Origin: Limisphaerales bacterium | GTDB lineage: Bacteria; Verrucomicrobiota; Verrucomicrobiia; Limisphaerales; PALSA-1396 | Assembly: GCA_003140275.1 (NCBI GenBank) | Contig: PLJQ01000069.1 | Coordinates: forward strand, 1 to 44,161 | Reading direction: 5' to 3' | Length of the DNA stretch: 44,161 nucleotides | Part shown: positions 1,933-44,161 of the stretch, one piece after another | How positions within the stretch are numbered: the first letter of the stretch is position 1 | Layout of the letters: each line of letters starts with the position of its first letter | Notes under the pieces: generated by a model | Seen by the model: only the letters and a program-made list of their open reading frames with translations | Database searches by the model: none | Told to the model about the DNA's origin: nothing | Translations under genes and position numbers: made by a program

Positions 1933-2426
1933 TTGAGCGTGTTTAGTTCGGCACATTTATGTCTCATATTTCATCCTAGGAATTCATGACATAGCCACGC
2001 GAGAGACCGACGTTACGCAAGTTTCCCACCAAAGTTTCAGACAGTGAGAATGCTCTTTTGGAAGCGCATGAGTTTAGCCAAATTGTTCCGTTTATCTTCA
2101 TTTTTCTCCAGCCACTACCTGTTGAATCAGCTCAAAATTGTTTTGACCGCTTTTAAGTCAGCAATTGCTTTGCCACATCATAAATGAGAGTCGGACAGTC
2201 GAACAGATGGCCAAACTTCTTATCCAACATTCACCAATCAAGGTTGTTCGGCAAACTTGTCAACCTGTTGATTCAAAGAGAACTCTGAACGAAAGTCGGT
2301 AACAATCGCGCCTTGCTTACTTCGGGATGGTCCTCCCATAGGACATAAATTGTCTCGACTTTGGACGGTGGCTCTGGAATGATTTGATTGTTCCGGGATA
2401 AACTCGAACATAGGGTCTGGATGATA
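1933..2426. promoter_or_regulatory. AT-rich divergent intergenic region between the two pseudopilin triads (presumed bidirectional promoter region)
   Basis: There is about 0.5 kb without a convincing ORF, and it is visibly more AT-rich than its flanks. Genes diverge from it on both strands. Confidence 0.4.
2112..2245 (+). repeat. Noncoding repeat, copy A (partner at 4721-4860)
   Basis: By-eye alignment of the core tcaaaattgttttgaccgcttttaagtcagcaattgctttgccacatcataaatgagagtcggacag against ttcaaattgtttttgtccaacgttgagtcggcaaatgctttgtcacttcatcattaactcccgacaaag. Both copies are in the same orientation and continue into atggcCAaacttcttatcc / atggcGActttatcc. Confidence 0.5.
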
Positions 2427-2894
2427 ATGGAACTGAAAAATAAGCGAGCGGGACGCCGCGGGGTCAGCGCCTTCACACTGACTGAAGTGCTGGTGGGGGT
2501 GGCTGTTTCAGGGATTATGTTTAGCTCGATTCTAGTCTGCATCACCAACGGATTTGCGTCCGTTCAAGTGAACCGCGAAGACTCGCGGGCAACCCAGATA
2601 TTGGTCGAGAAAATGGAGATGATCCGACTCTATAACTGGAACCAAACCACCGGCAACGATCCCAACACCTGCGTGCCCGCAAGCTTCACGGCCCCATTTT
2701 ACCCGGATTCGGCGAACGGCGGACTGCTCTACTCAGGAACGGTGAGTATCACCAATGCGCCCATCACGGAAACGTATGCCAGCGACTTGAGGTTGGTCAC
2801 AATTGGTGTGGCCTGGACTTCCCGCAATGTGGCGCACACCCGGTCAATGATGACCTACGTGTCAAAATATGGTCTCCAAAACCACATTTACTAA
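2427..2894 (+). CDS. Prepilin-type N-terminal cleavage/methylation domain protein (small pseudopilin, paralog of 1450-1932)
   Basis: The motif GVSA|FTLTEVLVGVAVSGIMF is present. The start is taken at MELKNKRAGRRG (2427). The C-terminal beta-strand pattern resembles that of 1450-1932. Confidence 0.8.
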   Translation: MELKNKRAGRRGVSAFTLTEVLVGVAVSGIMFSSILVCITNGFASVQVNREDSRATQILVEKMEMIRLYNWNQTTGNDPNTCVPASFTAPFYPDSANGGLLYSGTVSITNAPITETYASDLRLVTIGVAWTSRNVAHTRSMMTYVSKYGLQNHIY

Positions 2895-3414
2895 GGAGCA
2901 GGAGGCTGCGTTCACCCTGGTTGAGGTCATGGTGGGCTGTGGGCTGGGTTTGCTGGTGTTGGCGGTTGTCCTTTCGTTTGTCTTCTACAGTGGCCGCAGT
3001 TTCGCGGCCCTGACAAATTATATGGACCTGGATCAGCGCACCCAAATGGCCTTGGACAAGATGTCGCGAGAAATTCGACAGGTGAACATGTTGACCGCCT
3101 ATTCCTCGACCAATCTGACTTTTCAGGACTACGATGGCGCGACTCTGCAATATGTGTATGACGCGAATACGCAAACCTTGACGCGAATCAAAACCGGCGA
3201 GGCCACCACCACGAATTTGATCGGGTGCGATTCACTCTCCTTCTCTATTTTTCAGCGAACACCGAGCAACAACACGTTCCAGCCGTATCCAACCACGACG
3301 GTGACCGAAACCAAGCTGGTCGAACTTACCTGGAATTGTTCCCGGAAAGTTCTCGGGACGACCGCCAACACCGAGGTCATGCAGTCCGCCAAAGTCGTGA
3401 TCCGCAAGAAATGA
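2869..3414 (+). CDS. Prepilin-type N-terminal cleavage/methylation domain protein (PulJ/PilW-like, paralog of 824-1453)
   Basis: The motif EQEAA|FTLVEVMVGCGLGLLVLAVV is followed by ...ALDKMSREIRQ, typical of J-type pseudopilins. It overlaps the upstream gene by 26 nt. Confidence 0.8.
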   Translation: MVSKTTFTKEQEAAFTLVEVMVGCGLGLLVLAVVLSFVFYSGRSFAALTNYMDLDQRTQMALDKMSREIRQVNMLTAYSSTNLTFQDYDGATLQYVYDANTQTLTRIKTGEATTTNLIGCDSLSFSIFQRTPSNNTFQPYPTTTVTETKLVELTWNCSRKVLGTTANTEVMQSAKVVIRKK

Positions 3415-4694
3415 AAGCGCTCCACCTTGCCTCTGCTCAGTCGCGGCGCGGCAGCGTGCTGGTCACGGCGCTGGTTTTCGGCGCCGTTGCAGGCATCATG
3501 CTGGCAGCTTGCCTCCAGTTGATCGAGTCACGGCGCGTTTCCGTGATGCGTTCCCATGCCTGGAACAGTGCGATCCCCGTGCTGGAAGCCGGCATCGAGG
3601 AAGCCTTCACGCATCTGAAAATTGACAATTTTGACCTGACCGCCAACGGTTGGGAGAACATCTCAGCAGGTGTTTATCAGAAGTCCCGGACTAATTCCGA
3701 CAGTAGTTACTTTATCACTACTATTTCCAACACCACTGGAGCACCGGTCATTTTCTCGCAAGGCTTTGTGCCGTTGCCGCTCGTGGGGGGATACGTTTCG
3801 CGTCAGGTTCAGGTGAGTACGATAAATCGAGTGACCTTTAACAATGCCATGGCCGCCGTGAACCAAATTATCCTGAACGACGACGCGGTTGTTGACAGTT
3901 TCGATTCCACCGATCCCAGCTACTCCACCAACGGATTCTACGACCCAACCAAGCGTAAATCGGGTGGCGGCATGGTTACCAATTCCAAGGTGACGGACGC
4001 GATCCATGTGGACGCGGGCCACATCTACGGCAAAGTCAACACGGGTCCCGGAGGCACGGTCACGGTTGACTCCAACGGCGGGGTGGGCGACTACACATGG
4101 AGCAGCACCCATCCCGGCGAAATTCAGTCAGGGATGATTAGTGACGACATGAATGTCGCCTATGCGGACCAAGCCTTGCCTTCATCCTGGTCGCCCGTTC
4201 CACCGTCGAGCGGATCGTACAGCGGCACGAATTACACTTATGTTTTGAACGATGGTCAATACACCTTGGGTTCGATCTCTATAGGCGAAGACATGTCCAT
4301 TCTGGCCAAAGGAGATTGTATTCTGTATGTCAACGGCAACTTCACGGTTAGCGGCGACGGTTTTGTTTATATTGCGCCCGGCAGCAGCCTGAAACTTTAC
4401 GTGAGCGGCAGCGGAACCATATCCGGAGGCGGCATCGTCAACCGCACCCAGCTCGCCGCGAATATGTCTTATATCGGTTTGCCGAGCAGCACCACCTTGA
4501 CTATCAGCGGGCGTGCCGCGTTTATCGGCACGATCAACGCTCCCCAAGCTGACTTTACCGACAGCGGCTCCGGTGCCCTGTATGGCGCGGCAATTGTGAA
4601 ATCCTTCAACAACCGCGGCGGCGGCGCCGTCCATTACGATGAGGGCCTGGAAGGCGGCGGAAATCTGACCATCACGTCCTATCGGGAACTGTGA
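3411..4694 (+). CDS. PilX-N-like pilus/pseudopilus assembly protein with a beta-helix-like C-terminal region
   Basis: The start is taken at MKALHLASAQSRRGSVLVTALVFGAVAGIMLAACL (ATG 3411, ATGA overlap with the upstream stop). The C-terminus has G/S/T-rich repeats, ...YVNGNFTVSGDGFVYIAPGSSLKLYVSGSGTISGGG...INAPQADFTDSGSGALYGAAIV...VHYDEGL. The listed ORF start at 3225 is an upstream extension. Confidence 0.75.
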   Translation: MKALHLASAQSRRGSVLVTALVFGAVAGIMLAACLQLIESRRVSVMRSHAWNSAIPVLEAGIEEAFTHLKIDNFDLTANGWENISAGVYQKSRTNSDSSYFITTISNTTGAPVIFSQGFVPLPLVGGYVSRQVQVSTINRVTFNNAMAAVNQIILNDDAVVDSFDSTDPSYSTNGFYDPTKRKSGGGMVTNSKVTDAIHVDAGHIYGKVNTGPGGTVTVDSNGGVGDYTWSSTHPGEIQSGMISDDMNVAYADQALPSSWSPVPPSSGSYSGTNYTYVLNDGQYTLGSISIGEDMSILAKGDCILYVNGNFTVSGDGFVYIAPGSSLKLYVSGSGTISGGGIVNRTQLAANMSYIGLPSSTTLTISGRAAFIGTINAPQADFTDSGSGALYGAAIVKSFNNRGGGAVHYDEGLEGGGNLTITSYREL

Positions 4695-6537: not shown

Positions 6538-9500
6538 TAAACAAAAACTCGTTACTGTTGAAGATCAGGCGGCAAAGATTCGGCAGCCCATATTTTTGCG
6601 CGTAAGCGACAAGGAGTTTCGATTCGTCACCACGCGGCTGGCGGTTTAACGCCAGTTGATAAGCCGCCCCGATCTGCTTCGATGGATTGTTGCTCATGCT
6701 GCTGATGCGCTCGGCGAAGTGTTCCGTTTGTTTGAGGACGAATGGGTCGTTCAGCAACGCCAGCGCCTGGAGTGCGGTGATGGTGGTGTTGCGTCGTGGC
6801 GTGAGCAACGACGGATCGGCGCTGTCGAGGCAATCCATGAACGGATCGGGCACGCTGCGCACAATGAACCGGTAAATGCTGCGACGATAACTTCCCGCGC
6901 TGTCCACATCAAAGCGCGTGTAATCGTACACTGGCGAATGATCGTCCTTGAAATAAAACTGCTGAACGGACGGGCCGCCCATCATCGGGTCGAGCTTGCC
7001 GTTGACAAACAAAATGGCGTCGCGCACGGACTCGGCGTCGAGGCGTTGCCGGTTCATACGCCAGAGGAAACGGTTGTCGCCATCGGTGTGCGCGTATTGA
7101 GGATTGTTGGCGGAGGATTGACGGTAAGTCGAGCTGGTGACGATGAGCTTGTGCAGTTGTTTCAGTGATTCGCCGTTGTCAAGAAACCAGTAAGCGAGCC
7201 AATCCAGCAGTTCGGGATGAGTCGGCAACGAGCCCATGTGGCCAAAGTCGTTGGGAGTATCAACGATGCCGCGACCGAAATGATACTGCCAGACGCGGTT
7301 GACGATGGAGCGGCGCGTCAAAAGATTTTTCGGATCAGTGATCCAATGGGCGAGCGCGGCACGCCGGCTGCCCTCGTTGTTTGAATCAACGCCCTCCAAA
7401 CGGTTGGCCAGACCGGCGAGGCATGAGAGCGCCGCCGGGGCCATGAGTTTGCCAGGTCGCTTCACATCGCCGCGGGAGAGCAGATGAACCGGTCGCGACT
7501 TTTCGACGGGATGAAAACTGCCTTCAGCGGCAAAATCATTCGCAGCGGCATAAACGATTTTCGGCGGCGGCAGTGTGGCGAACTGACTTTTCACTTCCGC
7601 CAAACGGTCAGTTGCTTCGCGAAGTTGGTTCTTCGCCGGCTCGTCCAGCAGCGCTCCCACCAGCGCTTTGCGTTCCCCTTCCAGTTGCGTCACGGTATCC
7701 TCGATTTCCTTCCGCTTCGCCTGGTGAGCATCGGATTCCTTCACGTCACCCAGGCGGTTGCGGCTGCTGAAATCGTCCACGAGAAATGCCTTGGCCCAGC
7801 GTCCACTTTCAATGGAATCGAGCGATGTGACCGTGGCGCCAAGGGCAACGTTTTTGTTTTTGGAAATGGCCTGTAGTTCGCTGAGCGCAAAAATATAATC
7901 CTTTGTGCGTTCCCAAAGTTTGGTGGCGGTCACCCGAATGAAACGCGCGCTGTGGTTGGTGGCGGAAATGACAACCGGTTTGTCCGACGGATTCGTAAAG
8001 TCCGCGGCGGTGTGATCGGCAAGCGCAGTCGGGTTCGCGAAGGTTGCGTCATCCGCCACGTCCAATCGGAAGCGCACCGGAAACCCAAATCCGGGCGTGT
8101 CGGCGAAGTCAGTGGGCCGGGCTGGAAACAGACGGATTTCATCGAGCGGCACACTTTTTCCAAGATCAACCTGCACCCATTTTAGAACGTCGGGGGAGGA
8201 TTCAATGCCGCTGTGGTACCCGTTGCCAGGGCTGGTTTTTGTTCGCTTGGGCAGCGACGCCAGCTTGACGTCTTGTTCCTTCAGTTTCACGTCCAGCTTT
8301 TCGATGTCAGGGCTGGTGACTTTGGCGACGATCTCGTTCAACGATTTTAGTTTGGCTTCGAGCGATTTCTTTTCAGTGTTCAATGTTTTGCGTTGCGCAA
8401 AAATCTTTTTGTCCGTGTCAAACTGCCGATTCGCGCGATCGACTCCGGCGAAGACTGCTTGCAGGCTGTAGTAATCCGCCTGCGTGATGGGGTCGAACTT
8501 GTGGTCGTGACAGCGCGCGCAATGTACTGTGAGACTCTGAAAGGTGGACATGGCCGTCATCACCATGTCATCGCGGTCATTGTAACGGGCGATCAAACCG
8601 TCGGTCTTGCTCTCGGGCAGTTCGACGTGACCGACAAAATCCCACGGGCCGGCAGCGATGAAACCCACGGCGGGAATTTTATCCGGTTCGTCAAGGAACA
8701 ACACGTCACCCGCCAATTGCTCCTGGACGAATCGCGAATAAGGCGTGTCATCGTTGAAAGATTTGATGACGTAATCGCGATACGGCCAGGCATTGAGACG
8801 CGGCTTGTCCTTGTCGTAGCCGTGGGATTCACCGTAATGAACGACATCGAGCCAGTGTCTTCCCCACCGCTCTCCGTAACGGGGTGAATCCAGAAGGCGA
8901 TCCACCAACAATTCGTAGCTGTCCGTCCGTCGGTCGGCGATGAAAGCGGCGACTTCCTCCGGTGTGGGTGGCAATCCGATCAGATCAAAGCTGAGGCGGC
9001 GAATCAGAGTCCGTCGGTCGGCTTCGGGCGACGGTTTCAACTTTTCCTTTTCCAATCGCGCCAGCACGAAATTGTCGATCGAATTGCGCACCCATTTTTT
9101 GTTTTGGACTTTTGGAATCGCCGGGCGACTGGCGGGTTGAAAGACCCAGTAATCGCTTTTCGCTTTGACCTTCGCCGCGTCGATGCCATCCGGCCATTGG
9201 GCGCCCTGGTCGATCCACGCGCGTAACAGTCCGATTTGCGCGGCAGTCAGGCGGTCGCCTTTGGGGGGCATCTGCAAGTCTTCCACGAGGCCGGCAACAA
9301 AATGAATCAACGAACTTTCGGCGCTCTTGCCGGGTAGAATGTCGCGACCGCGCTCGCCGCCTTTCAACGCGCCGGTTTTGACATCGAGTCGAAACTCGGA
9401 TTTCTGTTTTTCCGGGCCGTGACACTTGTAACAGTTGGCTTCGAAGATGGGTCGGATGTCTTTGACAAACTCGACAGGCCTGGCGAACGGAGGCGGCAGT

Positions 9501-9637
9501 TTCGATGCATCACCAAGTGTCGGAGTGGCGGGCAACGACTTGAGCGCGCCACCCAGAACCAGCGTCAAAATCAACCAACCCGTTGATGGTTGGCTGATGC
9601 GCCGCCGCGTTCCGTTGATCAGGCCGCGTGCGTGCAT
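6530..9637 (-). CDS. PSCyt1/DUF1549/DUF1553 (PSD1) protein with planctomycete-type cytochrome c motif and a discoidin-like insert
   Basis: The heme motif [17 protein letters not shown] sits near the N-terminus. DUF1549-like (...[36 protein letters not shown]) and DUF1553-like (...[18 protein letters not shown]...) blocks are present. A central segment, [25 protein letters not shown]...[12 protein letters not shown], resembles an F5/8 type C domain. Confidence 0.9.
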   Translation of the reverse strand: [1035 protein letters not shown]

Positions 9638-9661: not shown

Positions 9662-11041
9662 CTATACGAATTTACCGGGATTCAAGATGTCGCGCGGATC
9701 AAGGGCCATTTTAATCGCTCGATGCAACGAGCGCAACTCTGGGGACGCCGCCATCGGCCACCACGGTTTCTTCGCGAGACCGATTCCATGTTCGCCGGTG
9801 ATCACGCCGTCCCACGCCAGCACCTGTTTGAAAAGTTCGTCCAATGCGGCGTCGCATCGCTTTCTCGCGCCCGATTGGGTGAGGTCCACCATGACATTGA
9901 CGTGAATGTTTCCGTCACCGGCGTGACCGAAGCAGGCAATGGGCAGGCCGTGTTTCTTTTGCAGCTTCGCCGCGAAGTGAAACAGTTTTTTCAGACCCCC
10001 GCGCGGAACCACAATGTCCTCATTCAACTTGGTCAGGCCAGTGTCGCGCAACGATGCCGAGAATTCGCGGCGTAACTGCCAAAGATTTTCGCACGGGGCA
10101 TTTCCGTAAGCGCGTTGAACGAACCGCGGATGTTGGTGGCGGACGATCTTCTCCAATTCCCGGATTTCGGTTCGTACGGACTTCTCCTGGCCGTCGAGTT
10201 CCACGATCAAGTGGGCCTCGCAACCTTCGAGCCGCTGGCTGCCCGTTCGTTTACGCGCCGCCGCGAGCGTGAACTCGTCGGCAATCTCCAACGCGCATGG
10301 CAAAAGCCCGGCGTGGAAAATGGCGCGGATGGTTTTCGCGGCATCTTTCATGGCGCCAAATCCGATGGCCAGACAGGCGCGGAAAGGGGGCAGGGGAAGC
10401 AGCTTCAACGTGGCTTCCGTCACCACGCCGAGCAAACCTTCCGAACCGACAAACAGCCGCGCAAGGTCAAAGCCGGTTTTGTTTTTGTGCGTGCGGCTTC
10501 CAAGTTGTACGATCGAACCGTCGGCCAGCACCACTTCAAGTCCGAGCACGTAATCGCGAGTGACACCATATTTGAGGCAACGCGGCCCGCCGGCATTGGT
10601 GGCGATGTTGCCGCCAAGGGTGCAATCGGCCCGGCTGGCCGGGTCGGGTGGATAAAACAATCCACGCTTCTCAACGGCTTCCTGCAAGTGTTGCGTGATG
10701 ACGCCGGGTTGAACCACGGCCACAAAGTCGTCCGCATGAATCTCCTTGATGCGATTCATGTGTATCAACGACAGCACAATCCCGCCGCGTGAAGGCACAC
10801 AACCGCCGACATAACCAAAGCCGGCACCGCGCGCGGTTACGGGAATCCTGTGTTGGTGCGCAAAGCGAAGCAGCGTGGCTACGGACCTGGCGCTGCGTGG
10901 GAACACAACCGCGTCAGGATTATGCGCGGCAAACCATTTGTCGCCAGAGTGTTTTTCGCAGGTGGATTCGTCGAAACGGATTTCTCCGGCGGACAGGAGT
11001 TGTTGCAAGCGGGAGAGCGCCTTGAGCCGGGAGGATTTCAT
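9662..11041 (-). CDS. FAD-linked oxidase (GlcD / D-lactate dehydrogenase family)
   Basis: The FAD-binding PCMH-type region is PVTARGAGFGYVGGCVP...GGNIATNAGG. The C-terminal FAD-oxidase_C-like region is GHAGDGNIHVNV...GVITGEHGIGLAK. Confidence 0.85.
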   Translation of the reverse strand: MKSSRLKALSRLQQLLSAGEIRFDESTCEKHSGDKWFAAHNPDAVVFPRSARSVATLLRFAHQHRIPVTARGAGFGYVGGCVPSRGGIVLSLIHMNRIKEIHADDFVAVVQPGVITQHLQEAVEKRGLFYPPDPASRADCTLGGNIATNAGGPRCLKYGVTRDYVLGLEVVLADGSIVQLGSRTHKNKTGFDLARLFVGSEGLLGVVTEATLKLLPLPPFRACLAIGFGAMKDAAKTIRAIFHAGLLPCALEIADEFTLAAARKRTGSQRLEGCEAHLIVELDGQEKSVRTEIRELEKIVRHQHPRFVQRAYGNAPCENLWQLRREFSASLRDTGLTKLNEDIVVPRGGLKKLFHFAAKLQKKHGLPIACFGHAGDGNIHVNVMVDLTQSGARKRCDAALDELFKQVLAWDGVITGEHGIGLAKKPWWPMAASPELRSLHRAIKMALDPRDILNPGKFV

Positions 11042-11262
11042 TCAGCAGGCGCATCGTCGTCGGCGAGAAACGCCTTGGCTTCCTCGGCTTCCTCGCACGG
11101 AACTTGGACGCGGATGCCGCCGATGGCCATCGAATAACCGTCCATGCTCAACGCCGCCAGTTCGTCCGCCACGATGGCTTGAAAGCCGGCTGCGTCGAGC
11201 CGGGAGCGAACCAGTTGTGCATCCGCCGGATTGAACGCCTTGAAGATGGTTACGAGTGACAT
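11038..11262 (-). CDS. DUF2007-like small protein (putative signal-transducing fold)
   Basis: The start is taken at MSLVTIFKAFNPADAQLVRSRLDAAGFQA..., which fits the 16-nt gap after the upstream stop at 11279. Its stop overlaps the GlcD-like start as ATGA. The listed ORF start at 11400 would overlap the upstream gene. Confidence 0.6.
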   Translation of the reverse strand: MSLVTIFKAFNPADAQLVRSRLDAAGFQAIVADELAALSMDGYSMAIGGIRVQVPCEEAEEAKAFLADDDAPAE

Positions 11263-11278: not shown

Positions 11279-12286
11279 TCATGCAGCCATCGGGGTCTTG
11301 AGGTCAGCGAACACGATGACGCCGGCGCCGGTCTGCAGCAGGGTTTGCACCTGCACCTGCACCTGCTGGCCGATGAGGGTTTGCGCTTGATTGACGACAA
11401 CCATCGTGCCGTCGCTCAGGTAACCCACGCCCTGCCCCTTGTCCTTGCCTTCTCGGACGATGCGCAGTGACAGCGTTTCGCCGGGTAAAAGCAACGGCTT
11501 GAGTGATTTTGACAACTCGTTCAGGTTGACGTAATTGACCGACTGCAGTTCAGCGATTTTGCCGAGATTGAAATCGTTGGTGAATAGTTTGGCTTTTAAA
11601 TTGCGGGCGAGCCGCACCAGTTTGGCATCCACTTCCGCTTCCTCGGGAAAATCGCCTTCGTGGATTTTGACTTCGTTGTTGGTGTTGCGCTGGATGCGAT
11701 TAAGCACTTCCACTCCGCGCCGCCCGCGCGCCCGGCGGATGGGGTCGTCCGAATCGGCGATGTGCTGCAACTCCCGCAGCACGAAACGAGGAACAACGAT
11801 CAGACCTTCGATGAAATTCGCTTCGATCAGGTCGGCGATCCGGCCGTCGATGATCACGCTGGTGTCGAGCAACAGCAGATTGTCCGGCTTGTTCTGCGGG
11901 GCGAAGCGAACGTACGGGATGATGAGCGAGAAGTCCTCCTTGTTGCTGCGCATCGCCAGCACGATGCCGATGTAGCCGAAGCCGAGGAACACCCCGAGCC
12001 GGATCAGCCAGCGGGTCTTCGCATCCACAAACTCAAACAAACCAGACCGGTCAATCACCAGCGCGATCACCACGCCCAGCAGCAATCCAAAAGTTGTGGA
12101 CGAAAAGGCCCGAAGCGAAAACCCCTTCAACATTTCATCGATGGCGATCAGCAACATTCCAAAACCAAAACCGATCATCATGCCGACGGTGCCATTGGAG
12201 ATCATCTCCGGGCGGACTTGCGTGATGGCAAATCCGGCGATGGTGCATAACGACAAAAACAATGCGCGAATGGACCAAAGAGCCAT
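11279..12286 (-). CDS. Membrane-anchored PIN + TRAM domain protein (YacL-like)
   Basis: Four N-terminal hydrophobic helices are followed by a PIN block (LLLLDTSVIIDGRIADLI...VVPRFVLRELQHIADS). A C-terminal TRAM-like block follows (GETLSLRIVREGKDKGQGVGYLSDGTMVVV). Confidence 0.8.
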   Translation of the reverse strand: MALWSIRALFLSLCTIAGFAITQVRPEMISNGTVGMMIGFGFGMLLIAIDEMLKGFSLRAFSSTTFGLLLGVVIALVIDRSGLFEFVDAKTRWLIRLGVFLGFGYIGIVLAMRSNKEDFSLIIPYVRFAPQNKPDNLLLLDTSVIIDGRIADLIEANFIEGLIVVPRFVLRELQHIADSDDPIRRARGRRGVEVLNRIQRNTNNEVKIHEGDFPEEAEVDAKLVRLARNLKAKLFTNDFNLGKIAELQSVNYVNLNELSKSLKPLLLPGETLSLRIVREGKDKGQGVGYLSDGTMVVVNQAQTLIGQQVQVQVQTLLQTGAGVIVFADLKTPMAA

Positions 12287-12289
12287 AAG

Positions 12290-13279
12290 TCAATTGAACG
12301 GGTTTTTCGGCGGATACAACACTTGATTGGTTGGCGATTCAGTTCGTGCCGCTTTTGGTTTCCATAAAATGCCCCACAGTCCGAGCCGGTTCAAATTGCT
12401 GCTGGTGACCGCCAGGTTGCTGGCCAGCATGGACACATGGTTTTTCAGTTCTTCGTCTTTGATCAGGCCGCCCGCCAGACCGTGGCCCGCCTGCAACTCG
12501 TCCAGGAGATGTTTCAACACAACGGTCGAGGATTCAATATTATTAACCGCAGTTGAGATTTGCGCACTGTTGGTTTTTACAACCTCCTGGAGTTCGTCAC
12601 CCACCACATTAAGCTGCCCGGAGAATCGAAACACGTTGCTCACCGAGGCGTCGATTGCGGCGCGGTTGGTTTCCAATAACGTGTTCATACCGTCCACCGT
12701 GGTCAGCGCGCGTTCAGCAACCAGCCGGAAGTTTCCCACCGTGATCGAGAGATTCGTCAAGGTCTGTTCGTTGAGCACCAGCCGGTCAATGCGCGTCATG
12801 GCGTCGTCGAGCTTCTTCGCGGTTTCGTCGATGCGCTGGATGAAACCGGCCGCGGAGCGGGCCACTTCCTGGAGGTTGAACGGCTCGGGCGATTCCACTT
12901 CATCACCGTCGTTCAAACGCGGCCCGGTATTGTCGCCCGGAATGATGCCCACATACTGGTCGCCCAAAAAACCGGATTGTTCGATCACAAACCGCGCGTC
13001 GCGATGGACTTTGAAGTCGCTGTAAATCTTGAGATAAATGTAAACGTGTTTGCCGTTGGGCAAAAGCTCGATGCGCGACACCGTGCCCACCGGCACGCCG
13101 GACATCAACACGCCCGCCCGCGCCTTGATGCCGCCCACGTTGCTGGATTTGAGACGCAACACATAGGTCGAGCGGAAGAAGGTCGTGCCCTTGCTGAATT
13201 GCAAGAGCAGGACTGCCAGCAGCACCAGGCCGATGGCGACGAACAGCCCCACTTTCTTTTCGTGGTTCGATTTGGCCAT
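12290..13279 (-). CDS. mlaD: MlaD/MCE-family substrate-binding protein
   Basis: An N-terminal anchor (KKVGLFVAIGLVLLAVLLL) precedes the MCE core (GGIKARAGVLMSGVPVGTVSRIEL...). It is the third gene of an MlaE-MlaF-MlaD arrangement. Confidence 0.8.
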   Translation of the reverse strand: MAKSNHEKKVGLFVAIGLVLLAVLLLQFSKGTTFFRSTYVLRLKSSNVGGIKARAGVLMSGVPVGTVSRIELLPNGKHVYIYLKIYSDFKVHRDARFVIEQSGFLGDQYVGIIPGDNTGPRLNDGDEVESPEPFNLQEVARSAAGFIQRIDETAKKLDDAMTRIDRLVLNEQTLTNLSITVGNFRLVAERALTTVDGMNTLLETNRAAIDASVSNVFRFSGQLNVVGDELQEVVKTNSAQISTAVNNIESSTVVLKHLLDELQAGHGLAGGLIKDEELKNHVSMLASNLAVTSSNLNRLGLWGILWKPKAARTESPTNQVLYPPKNPFN

Positions 13280-39953: not shown

Positions 39954-40116
39954 GGAGCCTGCGGCGGCAACGTTTTCCCTTCCGGCCCTCATCCTCGGGG
40001 GAGGGCGTGAGCTGGTCCACTTGCGCTCGGGCCTTCGCCACCGCAACACTCGTTGTTTCATGGGCGGGCTGCCGCGCCCGTCCGAATTCAGTTGGGAAAT
40101 CCGCGCGTTCATGGAT

Positions 40117-40566
40117 TCATGAACTGGATTGGAGTTTCGTTTTGACGCGGTTCAACAACTCCTGATACGGCCCGCGTCTGTAGTGGATTGGCTGCGCTTC
40201 TTCCACGGAACGGTCGCCCACATCGCGCACCATGAATGCCTCGCAGTGCAGCAAATGTGTGCCGTTGTTCTGGACATCGACGTGGATAATCACGCGGATC
40301 GTCACACCGGAGTCCCAGCCACCGTAAGCCAGGTTGTTCACCGCGCCGCCGGGCTTTTCAAAGGTCGCCGCCAGAACGGAATTAGTCTTCAAGCGATAGC
40401 CGTTTTCCTTGAAAACCTCGACCGTCGCCTGCCTGATTTCGGCACCCGTGCGTCCGTCAATCTCCACCCAGGCGAGACTGCCCTGGCCCGCTGGTGGCGG
40501 CGTCTGACAACCGGCCAGGAACAACAATGCAAGCAGCAGACCCAGGAGGAAGATAAAAGATTTCAT
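40117..40566 (-). CDS. Hypothetical lipoprotein
   Basis: The lipobox is in MKSFIFLLGLLLALLFLAGC|QTPP. I recognise no family. Confidence 0.7.
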   Translation of the reverse strand: MKSFIFLLGLLLALLFLAGCQTPPPAGQGSLAWVEIDGRTGAEIRQATVEVFKENGYRLKTNSVLAATFEKPGGAVNNLAYGGWDSGVTIRVIIHVDVQNNGTHLLHCEAFMVRDVGDRSVEEAQPIHYRRGPYQELLNRVKTKLQSSS

Positions 40567-40572
40567 GCGGTT

Positions 40573-40773
40573 TCACTTGGTGCGATTTAACAGTTCTGAT
40601 GCGGGTTCATCGGCGGGGTTTTGGGGGACGAGTTTGCCCGCGAAGGCGCGGGCGAGGAGGGAGGACGTGAGCTTGCAGACTTGCCCGCGCGCCTTGGCCA
40701 ACCGCACTTCAAGCTGGTTGGCCAGCGCAAACAATCCCTCCACTCGCCGCACGATTTCCTGTTCTTCAACCAT
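40573..40773 (-). pseudogene. hsdS: hsdS C-terminal conserved-region fragment (66 codons)
   Basis: MVEEQEIVRRVEGLFALANQLEVRLAKARGQVCKLTSSLLARAFAGKLVPQNPADEPASELL aligns almost residue-for-residue with the tail of the intact HsdS at 41590-42921 (LPEQQVIVRRVEGLFALADQLEVRLAKARGQVGKLTPSLLALAFAGQLVPQDLSDEPAEKLL). No target-recognition domain precedes it. Confidence 0.65.
40621..40763. repeat. Direct repeat, distal copy (hsdS 3' conserved region)
   Basis: This 143-nt stretch matches 41668-41810 with about a dozen mismatches by hand count (roughly 92%). Weaker similarity continues to about 40590 / 41637. Confidence 0.85.
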
Positions 40774-41587
40774 CTTCCGCTCCTGAAATGTTTGTGCCCG
40801 TTCCAGAGCCGATAATGAATTCGGCCGACGATAACTGTCCTGACGATGACACAGACAAGTTTGCTCTCACTTGTTTAGTCACGTCGTAGTTCAAATTCTT
40901 CACGGCAGCGTTCCATGACACTGGCCTCCAACCATGCTTCGCTGGCATGCTCTTTCGGAGATCTGCAAAGCACCGCTCCAACCGCGCTTCGAGTTCGCGC
41001 AGTATCTTTGAGACTCCCGTGGAAACGAACTCAAAGTCGGTAGATTTAAGTTCTTGCCAGAGCATTTTATCGTTCCAGTGCTTTGGCGTTTCTCCTAGTG
41101 CTGGAACAGCGAGAGCGTTGTAAACCCACTTCATTGGGACTTTAGGCCCGTGCAGCACGATGTGTCGATCCTTCCAATACTCGTCAAAAGGCTTGAGCAA
41201 GTCGGGCCTGTCCAATTCTCCCGCGACAGCTTTCACCATGTCATGTATTCGGCCCATGTGTGAATGGAACGCCATCCAAAGATTGAGGTTCTGCGCATAG
41301 CTCCTGAAGCCCGTAATCTCGGTGATTTTGTGCAGGTCGTCCTCGATCTCCCAACATAGGGCAAGGCTCTCCAGAATTGTGTAAATGCGCTGCCATTGCT
41401 TTTCACGTGAATCGAGGACCTCCCGCTCCACGCCAGCCATCGGTAGCGCGTGTGCATGCCCATCATTGCCGATATATTCCGCCCAGACTTTCGCATAGGA
41501 GGGGATCACCGCCGCAATCCGGTCAGCAAATTGTTGCTCAACCAAGTCACCGTCTGATTTCAGTTTTACAATTGTTTCTTCCGACAT
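40766..41587 (-). CDS. Uncharacterised 273-aa protein embedded in the type I R-M locus; candidate HEPN-like (R-x4-H) defence effector
   Basis: The start is taken at MSEETIVKLKSDG (ATG 41585-41587), 2 nt after the hsdS stop. The composition looks helical. There is a single KDRHIVLHG motif (R141..H146, nt 41150-41167). The C-terminal tail is Ser/Gly-rich. Calling it a CDS is fairly safe, but the functional label is an inference. Confidence 0.65.
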   Translation of the reverse strand: MSEETIVKLKSDGDLVEQQFADRIAAVIPSYAKVWAEYIGNDGHAHALPMAGVEREVLDSREKQWQRIYTILESLALCWEIEDDLHKITEITGFRSYAQNLNLWMAFHSHMGRIHDMVKAVAGELDRPDLLKPFDEYWKDRHIVLHGPKVPMKWVYNALAVPALGETPKHWNDKMLWQELKSTDFEFVSTGVSKILRELEARLERCFADLRKSMPAKHGWRPVSWNAAVKNLNYDVTKQVRANLSVSSSGQLSSAEFIIGSGTGTNISGAEDG

Positions 41588-41589
41588 GG

Positions 41590-42921
41590 CTAATTGGCGT
41601 TTCGTTTCGAGTTTGTTTCGACACCGATGCACTCCAACAATTTCTCGGCTGGTTCGTCGCTGAGGTCTTGGGGGACGAGTTGGCCGGCGAAGGCGAGGGC
41701 GAGGAGGGAGGGCGTGAGTTTCCCCACTTGCCCGCGCGCCTTGGCCAACCGCACCTCAAGCTGGTCGGCAAGCGCAAACAATCCCTCCACTCGCCGCACG
41801 ATTACCTGTTGCTCGGGGAGCGGACAAATTCTGACTTCCAGTTTCCGAAGCTGCGTCGTGTTGATTCGTGGGCGAGTTGCACCGTGAACCTCCTCGACCA
41901 ACGTGTTGTAGGATTTCTGGCTGATGAGTTGGAAAACGAGATATTGCCGGTCAACCAATTCCAGATTCGGGCGCAAACAGAAACAGTCAGCTTTAGCGAC
42001 GGCCTTCGTTGACAACTTGGGCAGCACGCAAGCACGCACTTCTTCGGAGATGAACGAGGCGAAGATGATGTCTCCCTCACCCACCGTATGCCTTTTCAGC
42101 GTCTCGTATTTCTCCCGACTGATGAACGTCTCCTTCTCGCCGATAAACCGAAGCTGCCCGATGTTCTCCAAACGAACCACACGGACGCCAGACTCTGTGT
42201 AGTCGTCGCTTTTTAAATTCGAGCCGAACGGGCCGTCGAAGATTCCGCCCTTTGGAATGAGGTCTTCAACGGTTGTTTTTCGCCAGCCACGCGGCAGTTC
42301 ATCGTCTTGTAGGGTGTCCTCGGTTGGATTCTCCTCCCGCCAATCGGCGGTGAGGCGGCCGGAGCAGGCGGCGGCGAGGACGGATTGGCGAAAGCGCTTG
42401 AGCAGGACGGGAATCTTCGCCAGCCGCCGTTGGCTGGCGTCCACTTTGCCCAACAGCGTCTCCAGCTTCGCCACAATCCGCCGCTGCTCGGTGAGCGGAG
42501 CGAGGCGAACGGGAATCCGATTCATTGCTCCCTGCGTTAGCTTGAGGCGTGTCGTTCCATTCACGTATTCGTGAAAATCGAACCGATCCAGGAAGTGCTT
42601 GAGATACTGATTTGAAGAAACTCCCGACTTGGCGCTGAGAACGTGGGCATGGTTGTTAACCCAACTCTTGCCCCGAATGATGTAGGCGATGGGTTTTGAC
42701 TTGTCGAAGAATGGCGCACCGTCTTCGCCGATTAGCAAAAGCTCCGCATCGAACAAAGCTTTATCAATCCAACCAACTTGCCCTGTCGCGCCGTAGTAGG
42801 GCACATCACCTTCGCGCTTGGCACGTTCGTCTGAGTTAACGGGCACTCGCTGGTTATCGAGAACGTCCACACATTCTCGCAACTCGACTTCAGCCCACCC
42901 ATTCGGAAGCTCGTCGCTCAT
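41590..42921 (-). CDS. hsdS: Type I restriction-modification specificity subunit HsdS (two TRDs)
   Basis: The N-terminus reads LPNGWAEVELRECVDVLDNQRVPV. The central conserved helix is PLTEQRRIVAKLETLLGKVDASQRRLAKI...FRQSVLAAACSGRLT. The second TRD begins LPRGWRKTTVEDL. The C-terminal conserved helix is PLPEQQVIVRRVEGLFALADQLEVRLAKA. Confidence 0.9.
   Translation of the reverse strand: MSDELPNGWAEVELRECVDVLDNQRVPVNSDERAKREGDVPYYGATGQVGWIDKALFDAELLLIGEDGAPFFDKSKPIAYIIRGKSWVNNHAHVLSAKSGVSSNQYLKHFLDRFDFHEYVNGTTRLKLTQGAMNRIPVRLAPLTEQRRIVAKLETLLGKVDASQRRLAKIPVLLKRFRQSVLAAACSGRLTADWREENPTEDTLQDDELPRGWRKTTVEDLIPKGGIFDGPFGSNLKSDDYTESGVRVVRLENIGQLRFIGEKETFISREKYETLKRHTVGEGDIIFASFISEEVRACVLPKLSTKAVAKADCFCLRPNLELVDRQYLVFQLISQKSYNTLVEEVHGATRPRINTTQLRKLEVRICPLPEQQVIVRRVEGLFALADQLEVRLAKARGQVGKLTPSLLALAFAGQLVPQDLSDEPAEKLLECIGVETNSKRNAN
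41668..41810. repeat. Direct repeat, proximal copy (inside the 3' end of the intact hsdS)
   Basis: See 40621-40763. The two copies are 1047 nt apart and in the same orientation. Confidence 0.85.
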
Positions 42922-42945: not shown

Positions 42946-43144
42946 GTCCCGCAGGGGCGCCCGAAAATAGCCCAGCGATTTATCGCTGGGTTAACGTGCC
43001 CCCAAATCCTCCAAGCCCCCGAGGGGCGAAAGAAAATGTCGGAGAACAAATCCGGGTTCTGTCGTCCCCGACGGGACTCGTGCCGTTTTCGCACCGAAAC
43101 CCACCGTTGAAACGGTGGGCTATTTTCGTTCGTCCCTACGGGAC
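42946..43144. repeat. REP/MITE-like element: two inverted ~85-nt hairpin-rich units
   Basis: Unit 1 (plus orientation, from 42946) reads gtcccgcaggggcgcccgaaaatagCCCAGCGAtttaTCGCTGGGtt... Unit 2 (minus orientation, from 43144) reads gtcccgtagggacgaacgaaaatagCCCACCGTttcaACGGTGGGtt... The 8-bp stems at 42971-42990 and 43100-43119 differ at two positions with compensatory changes. Extra 5-bp GC hairpins lie at 43015-43027, 43064-43077 and 43132-43144. Confidence 0.65.
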
Positions 43145-43162: not shown

Positions 43163-43471
43163 TCATACGCGTTTCTTCCAATGGCGGTCATGCCGGGCGG
43201 CATGGAGCACGGCGGCAATAACCACGAGGTTTTCCGTTTCGATGACTTCGTAAATCACGCGATAAGGAAAGCGCTGCGGGTAGCGCCAACGGATATTCTT
43301 CCGAGGGTGCTGTCGGCAGTTCAGAAGCGGGTTGTCCGCCAGTGCGTCGAGAACCTGAATCAGCGCCTCGCGGAATTCAGTGCCCAGTCCTTCCTGCCGG
43401 GCTTCATACCATTCAGCAGCGTCGGCGATGTCGCCTTGCGCTTCCGGGCGAACCACCACGCGCCAGTTCAT
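43163..43471 (-). CDS. Type II toxin, ParE/RelE superfamily
   Basis: The sequence MNWRVVVRPEAQGDIADAAEWYEARQEGLGTEF...FPYRVIYEVIETENLVVIAAVLHAARHD fits the ParE-like pattern (..A..Dl..i..y... / .PY.iiY.v....v.i.av.H..r.). It is about 100 aa and overlaps the upstream antitoxin by 4 nt. Confidence 0.8.
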   Translation of the reverse strand: MNWRVVVRPEAQGDIADAAEWYEARQEGLGTEFREALIQVLDALADNPLLNCRQHPRKNIRWRYPQRFPYRVIYEVIETENLVVIAAVLHAARHDRHWKKRV

Positions 43472-43677
43472 GTTTGAGAGCGAAGGCGGCGCTTCATTTC
43501 TTCCAGCGGCACGGAGGAATCGGGATTGGCCCGGTGAGCCGCCAGACGAGATTCGACCAGCGCCTCGTCGGCTTCCGAGAGTGGCAGGTCTTCCAGTTCC
43601 AACAGCTTGCCGAACACGGCCCGGCGCTCGGTCTCTGTCAGCTTGGGCAGTTCGTTGATGATTTCGGTCGCGCTCAT
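43468..43677 (-). CDS. Antitoxin, 'putative addiction module component' family
   Basis: It is 69 aa and reads MSATEIINELPKLTETERRAVFGKLLELEDLPLSEADEALVESRLAAHRANPDSSVPLEEM. That matches the typical L..L...ER..L...L..SL... / R......p......eev layout. It has an ATGA overlap with the toxin gene. Confidence 0.75.
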   Translation of the reverse strand: MSATEIINELPKLTETERRAVFGKLLELEDLPLSEADEALVESRLAAHRANPDSSVPLEEMKRRLRSQT

Positions 43678-43756: not shown

Positions 43757-44161
43757 TCATCTCTCCACGCCCTCTTCCTTTTCCACCAGCGCGACAATTT
43801 CCCGGAGGTCCTCCACCACGGCTTCGAGTTCGGTGATGGCTTCGGCGGCGAGGTCCTGTGGTTCGGGCAATTCGTCGGCGTCTTCGAGCGAGTCGTCCTT
43901 GAGCCAGATGACATCGAGCTTGTAGCCGCGTTCCTTGATGTCAGAGATATGGAACTTGCGGAAGCGCCCAGTCTCGCCGCCATCGGTCCGTTTGCTCAAG
44001 CCGTTGGGGTCTTTGCCGTAGGCTTTTTCAAATTCTTCAAAGTGCGCCGCCGTGAGCGGGCGGTCTTTCTTGGTGATGCCGGGGACGTTGGTGCGGGCGT
44101 CGTAAATCCACACGGTCTTGGTCGGCGTCCCCTTGGTGAAGAAGACGACGTTCGCCTTGAC
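43757..44161 (-). CDS. hsdM: Type I R-M DNA methyltransferase HsdM, C-terminal 134 codons (the gene continues beyond the right edge)
   Basis: The frame is open from the window edge: VKANVVFFTKGTPTKTVWIYDARTNVPGITKKDRPLTAAHFEEFEKAYG...YKLDVIWLKDDSLEDADELPEP. This is the characteristic HsdM C-terminal tail, and it lies upstream of hsdS on the same strand. Confidence 0.85.
   Translation of the reverse strand, partial: VKANVVFFTKGTPTKTVWIYDARTNVPGITKKDRPLTAAHFEEFEKAYGKDPNGLSKRTDGGETGRFRKFHISDIKERGYKLDVIWLKDDSLEDADELPEPQDLAAEAITELEAVVEDLREIVALVEKEEGVER

Follow-up and report, generated by a model that had tools for sequence, protein, structure and literature searches.

HEPN proteins are built around a four-helix up-down bundle (Anantharaman et al., PMC3710099). 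Their Rx4-6H motif sits where helix 3 ends and the loop begins, the residue directly after the arginine is polar, mostly N, D, or H, and helix 2 bears a conserved acidic residue (PMC3710099). At least 16 HEPN clades linked to restriction-modification systems were listed in 2013 (PMC3710099), and in the paradigm of PrrC and RloC a latent RNase is released once phage neutralize the restriction enzyme. That HEPN genes accompany restriction-modification systems is already well known; the family described here is itself new. Its founder is encoded by a 273-amino-acid (aa) open reading frame (ORF), referred to here as the target gene, that directly follows hsdS of a type I restriction-modification system in a Limisphaerales bacterium (Verrucomicrobiota; contig PLJQ01000069.1 of GenBank assembly GCA_003140275.1). 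The window is the whole stretch of this contig that was analyzed, 44,161 nucleotides (nt) in length. An earlier reading made from the sequence alone, the original prediction, had proposed the ORF as a HEPN-like defense effector. We consider it fairly likely that the product of the target gene, a member of a previously undescribed family, is an endoribonuclease of the HEPN type that works alone and independently of metal ions and serves as a "second layer" effector of abortive infection.

The gene behind hsdS and its protein family

The features on which the argument depends are as follows.

40766..41587, minus strand: target gene, 273 aa, with its ATG at 41587 and its stop codon included at 40766; founder of an undescribed family
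41150..41167, minus strand: codons R141-H-I-V-L-H146 within KDRHIVLHG, the putative HEPN catalytic Rx4H
41590..42921, minus strand: hsdS, type I specificity subunit of 443 aa with two target-recognition domains (Pfam Methylase_S, 1.6e-23; PADLOC Specificity_I, 5.7e-80)

Both genes lie on the minus strand, and exactly 2 nt separate the hsdS stop codon (TAG, 41592-41590) from the ATG of the target gene (41587-41585), which bears out the spacing that was originally read. Given this spacing, the target gene would be cotranscribed with hsdS. A sequence scan of the window detected no terminator-like site between the two, and no promoter belonging to the target gene was seen in the window. Expression would most likely occur via read-through from hsdS and translational coupling. 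A terminator-like site at 40787-40807 lies inside the 3' end of the target ORF, and this makes read-through past the ORF less certain.

Several other candidate signals and frames were rejected. Three promoter-like matches inside the target ORF, versus 1.2 expected, are consistent with chance. A GTG start at 41632, which would give a protein of 288 aa, is disfavored because homologs begin at the ATG. Two ORFs on the plus strand (40947..41123 and 41377..42012) lack conservation support, whereas the minus-strand ORF is conserved. The G+C content of the target ORF (0.50 to 0.525) is 7 to 10 points lower than that of the flanking genes (0.57 to 0.62), as had been noticed at the outset.

No family could be assigned by eye in the original prediction, and the protein likewise had no match at an E value of ≤1 in Pfam, PADLOC, or NCBIfam. 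The fallback label of ORFan, by contrast, has to be dropped. A word-indexed search recovered 34 close homologs, all metagenomic, one of which is source-named Verrucomicrobiae while another, P0034, is named from a Deltaproteobacteria metagenome-assembled genome. When 1.84 billion cluster representatives were searched exhaustively with HMMER, the result was 231 clusters (50% identity) at E ≤ 1e-3, 145 of them at E ≤ 1e-10; together with the close homologs, these rule out ORFan status. A profile search of a 5.8-billion-protein set with alignment A2 reached neither further relatives nor Pfam-annotated proteins. Judged from its sequences, the family is real, broad, and previously undescribed.

Two family alignments were made, one of 30 close members and one of 118 diverse members with a mean column identity of 17%. 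The KDRHIVLHG segment is present where it had been placed, with R141 encoded by nt 41167-41165 and H146 by nt 41152-41150. The chance expectation of an R-x4-H in one 273-aa protein is estimated at about 0.4, so that a single occurrence is near chance level; it is strict conservation that makes the motif of the target protein meaningful. Both residues are invariant in all 30 close and all 118 diverse homologs, and conservation of the pair, on which the original prediction depended, is thereby confirmed. Only three columns of the 118-member alignment are invariant, and these are Y69, R141, and H146. The family consensus around the motif reads Y-x-x-R-N-x-V-L-H-G-x-K-x-P, and the residue that follows the arginine (position 142) is one of N (61 members), H (26), or S (21) in 108 of the 118 and otherwise C (9) or V (1). 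A second motif, G-R-I-R-D, includes G112 (kept in 116 of 118) and D116 (117 of 118), and 82 of the 118 members retain E73. The N-terminal 50 aa contain a further set of near-invariant residues across the 118 members: G13, D14, E17, Y31, W35, G40, N41, D42, and G43. The Ser/Gly-rich tail that had been pointed out is also real. It covers aa 234 to 273 (nt 40766-40885), is predicted to be disordered, and is unalignable except for an xSG[ST] motif found in the tail of 102 of the 118 members, whereas the rest of these proteins has a background of 0.12 SG dipeptides per 45 aa.

Predicted fold and the HEPN assignment

The protein had been described as mostly helical, and the AlphaFold2 (AF2) models agree. 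The predicted local distance difference test score (pLDDT) was 77.8 for a model made from 30 sequences and 88.6 for one made from 118 sequences, with a predicted TM score (pTM) of 0.83 for the latter. In the 118-sequence model, short N-terminal helices (residues 3 to 39) are followed by long helices at 55 to 87, where E73 sits, and at 94 to 125. A helix at 132 to 146 ends exactly with R141...H146 and runs into the loop before the last long helix; a small beta-hairpin (153 to 162) precedes that helix (188 to 218), and a low-confidence tail starts at about residue 234. The helical core thus spans aa ∼55 to 218, with the conserved N-terminal ∼50 aa ahead of it. The third long helix carries the motif at its C terminus, and D116 falls in the second. 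At the level of sequence and modeled secondary structure, the target protein therefore appears to carry the HEPN features described above: the placement of the motif, a polar residue at 142, and an acidic helix-2 residue, D116.

The known protein that comes closest at the motif is ApeA. Profile searches of PDB sequences with alignments A1 and A2 gave nothing significant. Among three sub-threshold matches of the A2 profile, the sole defense protein was Thr1ApeA (9hxl, E = 1.1), whose ...LYRQRNIVLHG was aligned with ...YqqRNiVLHG of the family. The sequences of Ec1ApeA and Ec2ApeA were recovered from Escherichia coli genomes, and an ApeA-HEPN profile was built from 32 sequences. The arginines onto which the family profile aligns are R521 of Ec1ApeA and R502 of Ec2ApeA, the validated catalytic residues whose mutation abolishes ApeA defense (bioRxiv 10.64898/2026.01.26.701840). 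The hhalign comparison of the family with the ApeA-HEPN profile gave P = 0.0026 and a probability of 11%, with only the 27 columns around the motif aligned. Global and low-mact hhalign runs against the ApeA-HEPN profile added nothing reliable. In structure searches, HepT (6m6u) ranked third in Foldseek for the better model, at a nonsignificant E value of 0.94 and a TM score of 0.40 normalized on the target. The sub-threshold database links of the family go to HEPN proteins only (ApeA and HepT) and are weak. As far as sequences can tell, the family has the ApeA catalytic signature yet is not demonstrably a member of ApeA or of any other described HEPN family.

When the 118 members were searched singly against Pfam, PADLOC, PHROGs, and NCBIfam, only scattered one-member noise was obtained, and none of it amounted to a match with a housekeeping family, which would have undercut the defense proposal. 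The DUF4145 Pfam model matched none of the 118 members. Comparisons by hhalign with single AbiU2, AbiJ/Abi_C, and DUF4145 sequences from neighboring loci all gave probabilities of <1%. Absence of the family from Pfam, NCBIfam, PADLOC, and PHROGs means that current defense-finding pipelines miss it.

A number of results weigh against the HEPN assignment and the defense role built on it. No significant profile or structure similarity to any established HEPN family was found. None of the HEPN models in Pfam matched any of the 118 members at E ≤ 1, and PADLOC gave no HEPN match either; the best PDB sequence match for the family reached an E value of only 1.1, and the ApeA alignment has a probability of only 11% over 27 columns. 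Foldseek searches of PDB gave no match below E = 0.59 with either AF2 model, and none fell below E = 0.27 when a BFVD search with the first model is included; generic four-helix bundles (FliS and designed bundles) scored like HepT. Residues D14, E17, N41, and D42 of the conserved N terminus might form a different active site. Genomic context, surveyed at ∼21 distinct loci (L-numbers below denote loci carrying family members or related sites), adds three further points: no antitoxin or obvious regulator was seen adjoining the target gene, close members are also found behind ribonucleotide reductase (L008) and argG (L010), and distant members (24 to 32% identity) occur in mixed contexts, some of them without a defense gene. 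The HEPN-like call of the original prediction is supported by motif, predicted helix topology, and genomic context, on which HEPN membership of the target protein would rest.

The same lack of a significant profile or fold match is what an enzyme of another kind would predict. The target protein could be an all-helical hydrolase or nuclease that uses H12-G13-D14, E17, N41-D42, H110, D116, and H146, with an R-x4-H arisen by convergence, and it would still be a defense or toxin effector, though no RNase of the HEPN type. The near-invariant residues outside the Rx4H motif, the N-terminal series from G13 to G43, are in keeping with such an enzyme, and helical metal-binding folds exist. However, no member of the 118 matched HD, DinB, or another Pfam family, the sub-threshold links lead to HEPN proteins only, and a motif that closes the third long helix, with a polar residue behind its arginine and a glycine behind its histidine, specifically fits HEPN. 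We regard this other kind of enzyme as rather unlikely.

Genomic neighborhoods and repeats at the hsdS 3' end

Homologs had been expected beside restriction or other defense genes, and they are strongly associated with both. At ∼10 of the 21 distinct loci, the family gene lies directly downstream of, and on the same strand as, type I, type III-like, McrBC, or HsdR genes. It directly follows a type I hsdS in the window and at L022/23, L024, L025/26, L027/28, and L035. At L001 it follows, after a gap of 28 nt, an operon of ResIII, SLFN-AlbA_2, and N6_N4 methyltransferase genes; at L012 a member that is 28 to 31% identical follows McrB-McrC; and at L041 it follows an HsdR with an N-terminal DUF4145, with Nmad3 preceding and a SIR2_2 gene facing. 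An hsdS 3' remnant alone precedes the family gene at L029. Other neighbors include HEPN_AbiU2 (5.5e-21) and a VapBC-like pair at L022, an AbiJ-like Abi_C gene (3e-22) that comes after the family member at L018 and L035, toxin-type genes encoding MazF (L027), ParE (L001 and L010), and HicB (L008), a HIRAN gene (L034), and an integrase-like gene (L030). At L007/L021 the family member is on its own, within a conjugative element that also encodes a relaxase and a coupling protein. The contexts of distant members comprise a RadC/DUF5906 mobile element, a LytTR two-component system (L048), an aminotransferase (L052), an AAA_21/PIN_2 region, and some that are uninformative. A scan of a genome collection with the A1 profile gave three loci only. 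The tie to restriction and defense genes is strong in the clade of the window and looser in the wider family, a pattern typical of single-gene Abi-like effectors.

A nucleotidyltransferase (MNT) gene adjoining the family gene was seen neither in the window nor at the other loci inspected. At L012, an NTP_transf_2/Polbeta gene followed by a 146-aa ORF without a family match (2247-3228) lies upstream of McrBC and has the look of an MNT-HEPN-type pair; this NTP_transf_2 gene is ∼5 kb from the family member and unrelated to it. L010 also carries, downstream of its family member, a long array of 21-nt tandem repeats at 9143-9554 (GCAGACCTGCA-like units).

Tight coupling of the gene to the 3' ends of operons of three restriction types would also suit a noncatalytic accessory or regulatory subunit. 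Such a subunit might function as a sensor, in assembly, or as an anti-anti-restriction factor, bind either DNA or the proteins of the restriction-modification system, and employ R141 and H146 for binding rather than catalysis. Consistent with such a subunit, the hsdM-hsdS-ORF modules of the window and L024 are homologous, with identities of 74% for the hsdM C terminus, 82% for the first target-recognition domain of hsdS, and 63% for the ORF. Type I, type III-like, and McrBC systems are mechanistically unrelated, though, which argues against one specific protein partner, and family members are also found behind ribonucleotide reductase and argG or alone in conjugative and mobile elements. An arginine and a histidine strictly invariant five residues apart are, moreover, typical of catalysis. 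We therefore hold an accessory subunit to be quite improbable.

The hsdS gene upstream of the target gene is intact, and part of its 3' end recurs downstream of it. A gapless, 163-nt direct repeat whose copies are 89% identical brackets the target gene, at whose stop codon copy B starts. The elements concerned are the following.

41648..41810, minus strand: direct repeat copy A, conserved 3' coding region inside intact hsdS
40573..40773, minus strand: hsdS 3' remnant, a 66-codon ORF with copy B (40601-40763); 80% aa identity to the hsdS C terminus by tblastn
40117..40566, minus strand: lipoprotein-like ORF of 149 aa between the remnant with copy B and the possible third remnant; no significant Pfam match
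40000..40045, minus strand: possible third hsdS 3' remnant, degenerate and weak (AKARAQVDQLTPS; 41-nt match, 78 to 80% identity, below the tblastn threshold)

Sibling loci have comparable arrangements. A 175-nt repeat (81% identity; 834-1007 and 1824-1998 of L027) surrounds the family gene at L027/28, as does a 221-nt repeat (82% identity; 3159-3379 and 4168-4387) at L035, and an hsdS remnant is found downstream of the family gene at L018 to L020. At L022, a 170-nt repeat (81%; 618-787 and 1645-1814) brackets AbiU2, and the gene order is hsdS, AbiU2, hsdS remnant, family member. In the window and at L022, L024, and L025, the hsdS tail that immediately precedes the family gene ends in "...K(SS)xRNA...," while the downstream remnants end otherwise. 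The tail shared next to the family gene suggests joint travel of the gene and the hsdS 3' end as one unit, and the repeats around the target gene, taken with the sibling loci, suggest insertion of a cassette by recombination at the hsdS 3' end. A brief literature search found nothing relevant as precedent for hsdS 3' duplications that flank Abi cassettes.

On the simplest reading of such an insertion, a circular or repeat-flanked cassette with a copy of the 3' end of its target would enter by recombination. The cassette would supply a replacement hsdS 3' end, and the resident 3' end would remain as the downstream remnant. The insertion would keep hsdS intact and bring the cargo under hsdS transcription. 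More generally, and as a tentative proposal, the conserved 3' end of hsdS (and in related genomes the 3' ends of other genes) may be a recombinational landing pad for promoterless single-gene defense or toxin cassettes that carry a copy of the target's 3' end. Stacked insertions (hsdS, target family, AbiU2, and possibly the lipoprotein-like ORF) would then form an integron-like array without a cassette integrase, and excision between repeats would yield a circular, transferable cassette. The lipoprotein-like ORF at 40117..40566 is possibly another cassette, perhaps in a tandem array. Among our findings, the duplicated hsdS 3' end is the one less to be expected. Its presence at several independent loci, including around a bona fide AbiU2, hints that defense cassettes are stacked by a simple recombination route without disruption of restriction operons, and, if general, repeat-mediated stacking would help explain how genes become embedded in defense systems.

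Direct repeats that flank the gene as in a mobile cassette, together with toxin-antitoxin cassettes inserted likewise in related genomes, could also mark a selfish element. The gene would then serve an addiction or toxin function for its own retention, with no anti-phage benefit, and its position behind restriction genes would be that of a permissive insertion site, in line with the "genomic sink" argument (bioRxiv 10.1101/2024.01.29.577857). Yet no cognate antitoxin gene accompanies the target gene, its co-conservation with hsdMS is long term, and seven of nine tested Hma-embedded candidate systems proved antiviral (Payne et al.). We think a purely selfish cassette very unlikely.

Repeat-bracketed cassettes were also seen at loci with toxin genes. 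At L010, a 114-nt duplication of the argG 3' end (94%; 7185-7298 and 7883-7996) brackets a ParDE cassette between argG and the family member. At L001, direct repeats of ∼370 nt (10875-11245 and 12286-12655) bracket a ParE cassette of ∼1 kb, for which L003 has the matching empty site (10875-11245). The left boundary of the L001 cassette is at a tandem 20-mer, GTC[GC]TCCATGTTAAGGGTCA, with a similar sequence at its right end. This att-like 20-mer is absent from the window.

The remaining features of the restriction operon in the window lie upstream of hsdS.

43163..43471, minus strand: ParE toxin (Pfam ParE_toxin, 4.1e-12), between hsdM and hsdS
43468..43677, minus strand: antitoxin of ParE (Unstab_antitox, 2.3e-4, below the Pfam gathering threshold)
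43757..44113, minus strand: C-terminal part of hsdM (PADLOC MTase_I, 2.7e-31); the gene probably runs past the window end

At L024, hsdM and hsdS share a 4-nt overlap, with no toxin-antitoxin pair between them, whereas the window has the ParE pair there. The 240-nt spacer between ParE and hsdS holds a 54-nt inverted repeat (42946-42999 and 43091-43144; 78% complementary), each arm of which contains a G+C-rich hairpin followed by a T run, so that the two arms resemble terminators of opposite orientation. A bidirectional terminator and a small repeat element are both conceivable.

Proposed function and comparison with known systems

For the target gene we infer RNase activity, dimerization, a trigger, and a defense phenotype, along with the mechanism of insertion given above. 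As in other HEPN proteins, dimerization would join two R141-x4-H146 motifs into a composite active site, with D116, Y69, and the polar residue 142 assisting catalysis. The enzyme would be latent until infection; candidates for its sensor or autoinhibitory parts are the disordered tail with its SG motif and the conserved ∼50 aa at the N terminus. Once activated, it would cleave either phage RNA or the tRNA, rRNA, or mRNA of the host to give 2',3'-cyclic phosphate ends, and this cleavage would halt translation ahead of phage release. The analogy for such a latent backup RNase is with PrrC, RloC, ApeA, and the lactococcal Abi HEPN proteins.

On sequence and model evidence, the target protein is probably the product of a new "second-line" anti-phage suicide gene. 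The gene is small and single, and its candidate active site (R141, H146, D116, and Y69) is sharply delimited; it is therefore easily tested by mutagenesis and phage challenge. Because it recurs behind restriction genes of type I, type III-like, and type IV systems, it lends itself well to the question of how an RNase "backup" is triggered when restriction fails.

Among described systems, the HEPN/MNT toxin HepT (PDB 6M6U, 7BXO, and 5YEP) resembles the AF2 model of the target protein in having four helices with an Rx4H where helix 3 ends, and it was the only toxin in the top Foldseek matches. It differs in being ∼130 aa long and always next to an MNT antitoxin gene, whereas the target gene has no adjacent MNT. 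DUF4145 is likewise a HEPN module tied to type I restriction-modification, being fused or adjacent to HsdR, but is ∼90 aa long and usually fused to another protein.

PrrC and RloC are, like the protein proposed here, HEPN RNases encoded in or beside type I hsd genes. In contrast to the target protein, which has no ATPase match and at 273 aa is too short for one, they have an N-terminal ABC-ATPase domain; PrrC is located between hsd genes, while the target gene follows hsdS. AbiU2, AbiJ/Abi_C, and AbiD/F share with the target protein a size of ∼250 aa, a helical and stand-alone nature, a conserved Rx4-6H, and residence in restriction-modification operons. AbiU2 at L022 even fills the same kind of slot, with hsdS 3' repeats around it and a family member in tandem. 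Neither AbiU2 nor AbiJ has detectable sequence similarity to the target protein, and their motifs at the loci examined are R-x5-H and R-x6-H, respectively.

ApeA (HEPN_Apea; PDB 9HXL and 9HXN), a single-gene anti-phage HEPN tRNase, differs from the 273-aa target protein in its length of 550 to 600 aa, its N-terminal and Mid domains, its large HEPN insertions, and its assembly into decamers. The HEPN_Apea model gave no Pfam or PADLOC match for the family, and only the catalytic segment aligns. That segment is nearly identical (YRQRNIVLHG in Thr1ApeA and YRTRNLIVHTGKTP in Ec2ApeA), and ApeA, like the target gene, is a single gene without an antitoxin and has also been reported in restriction-modification operons.

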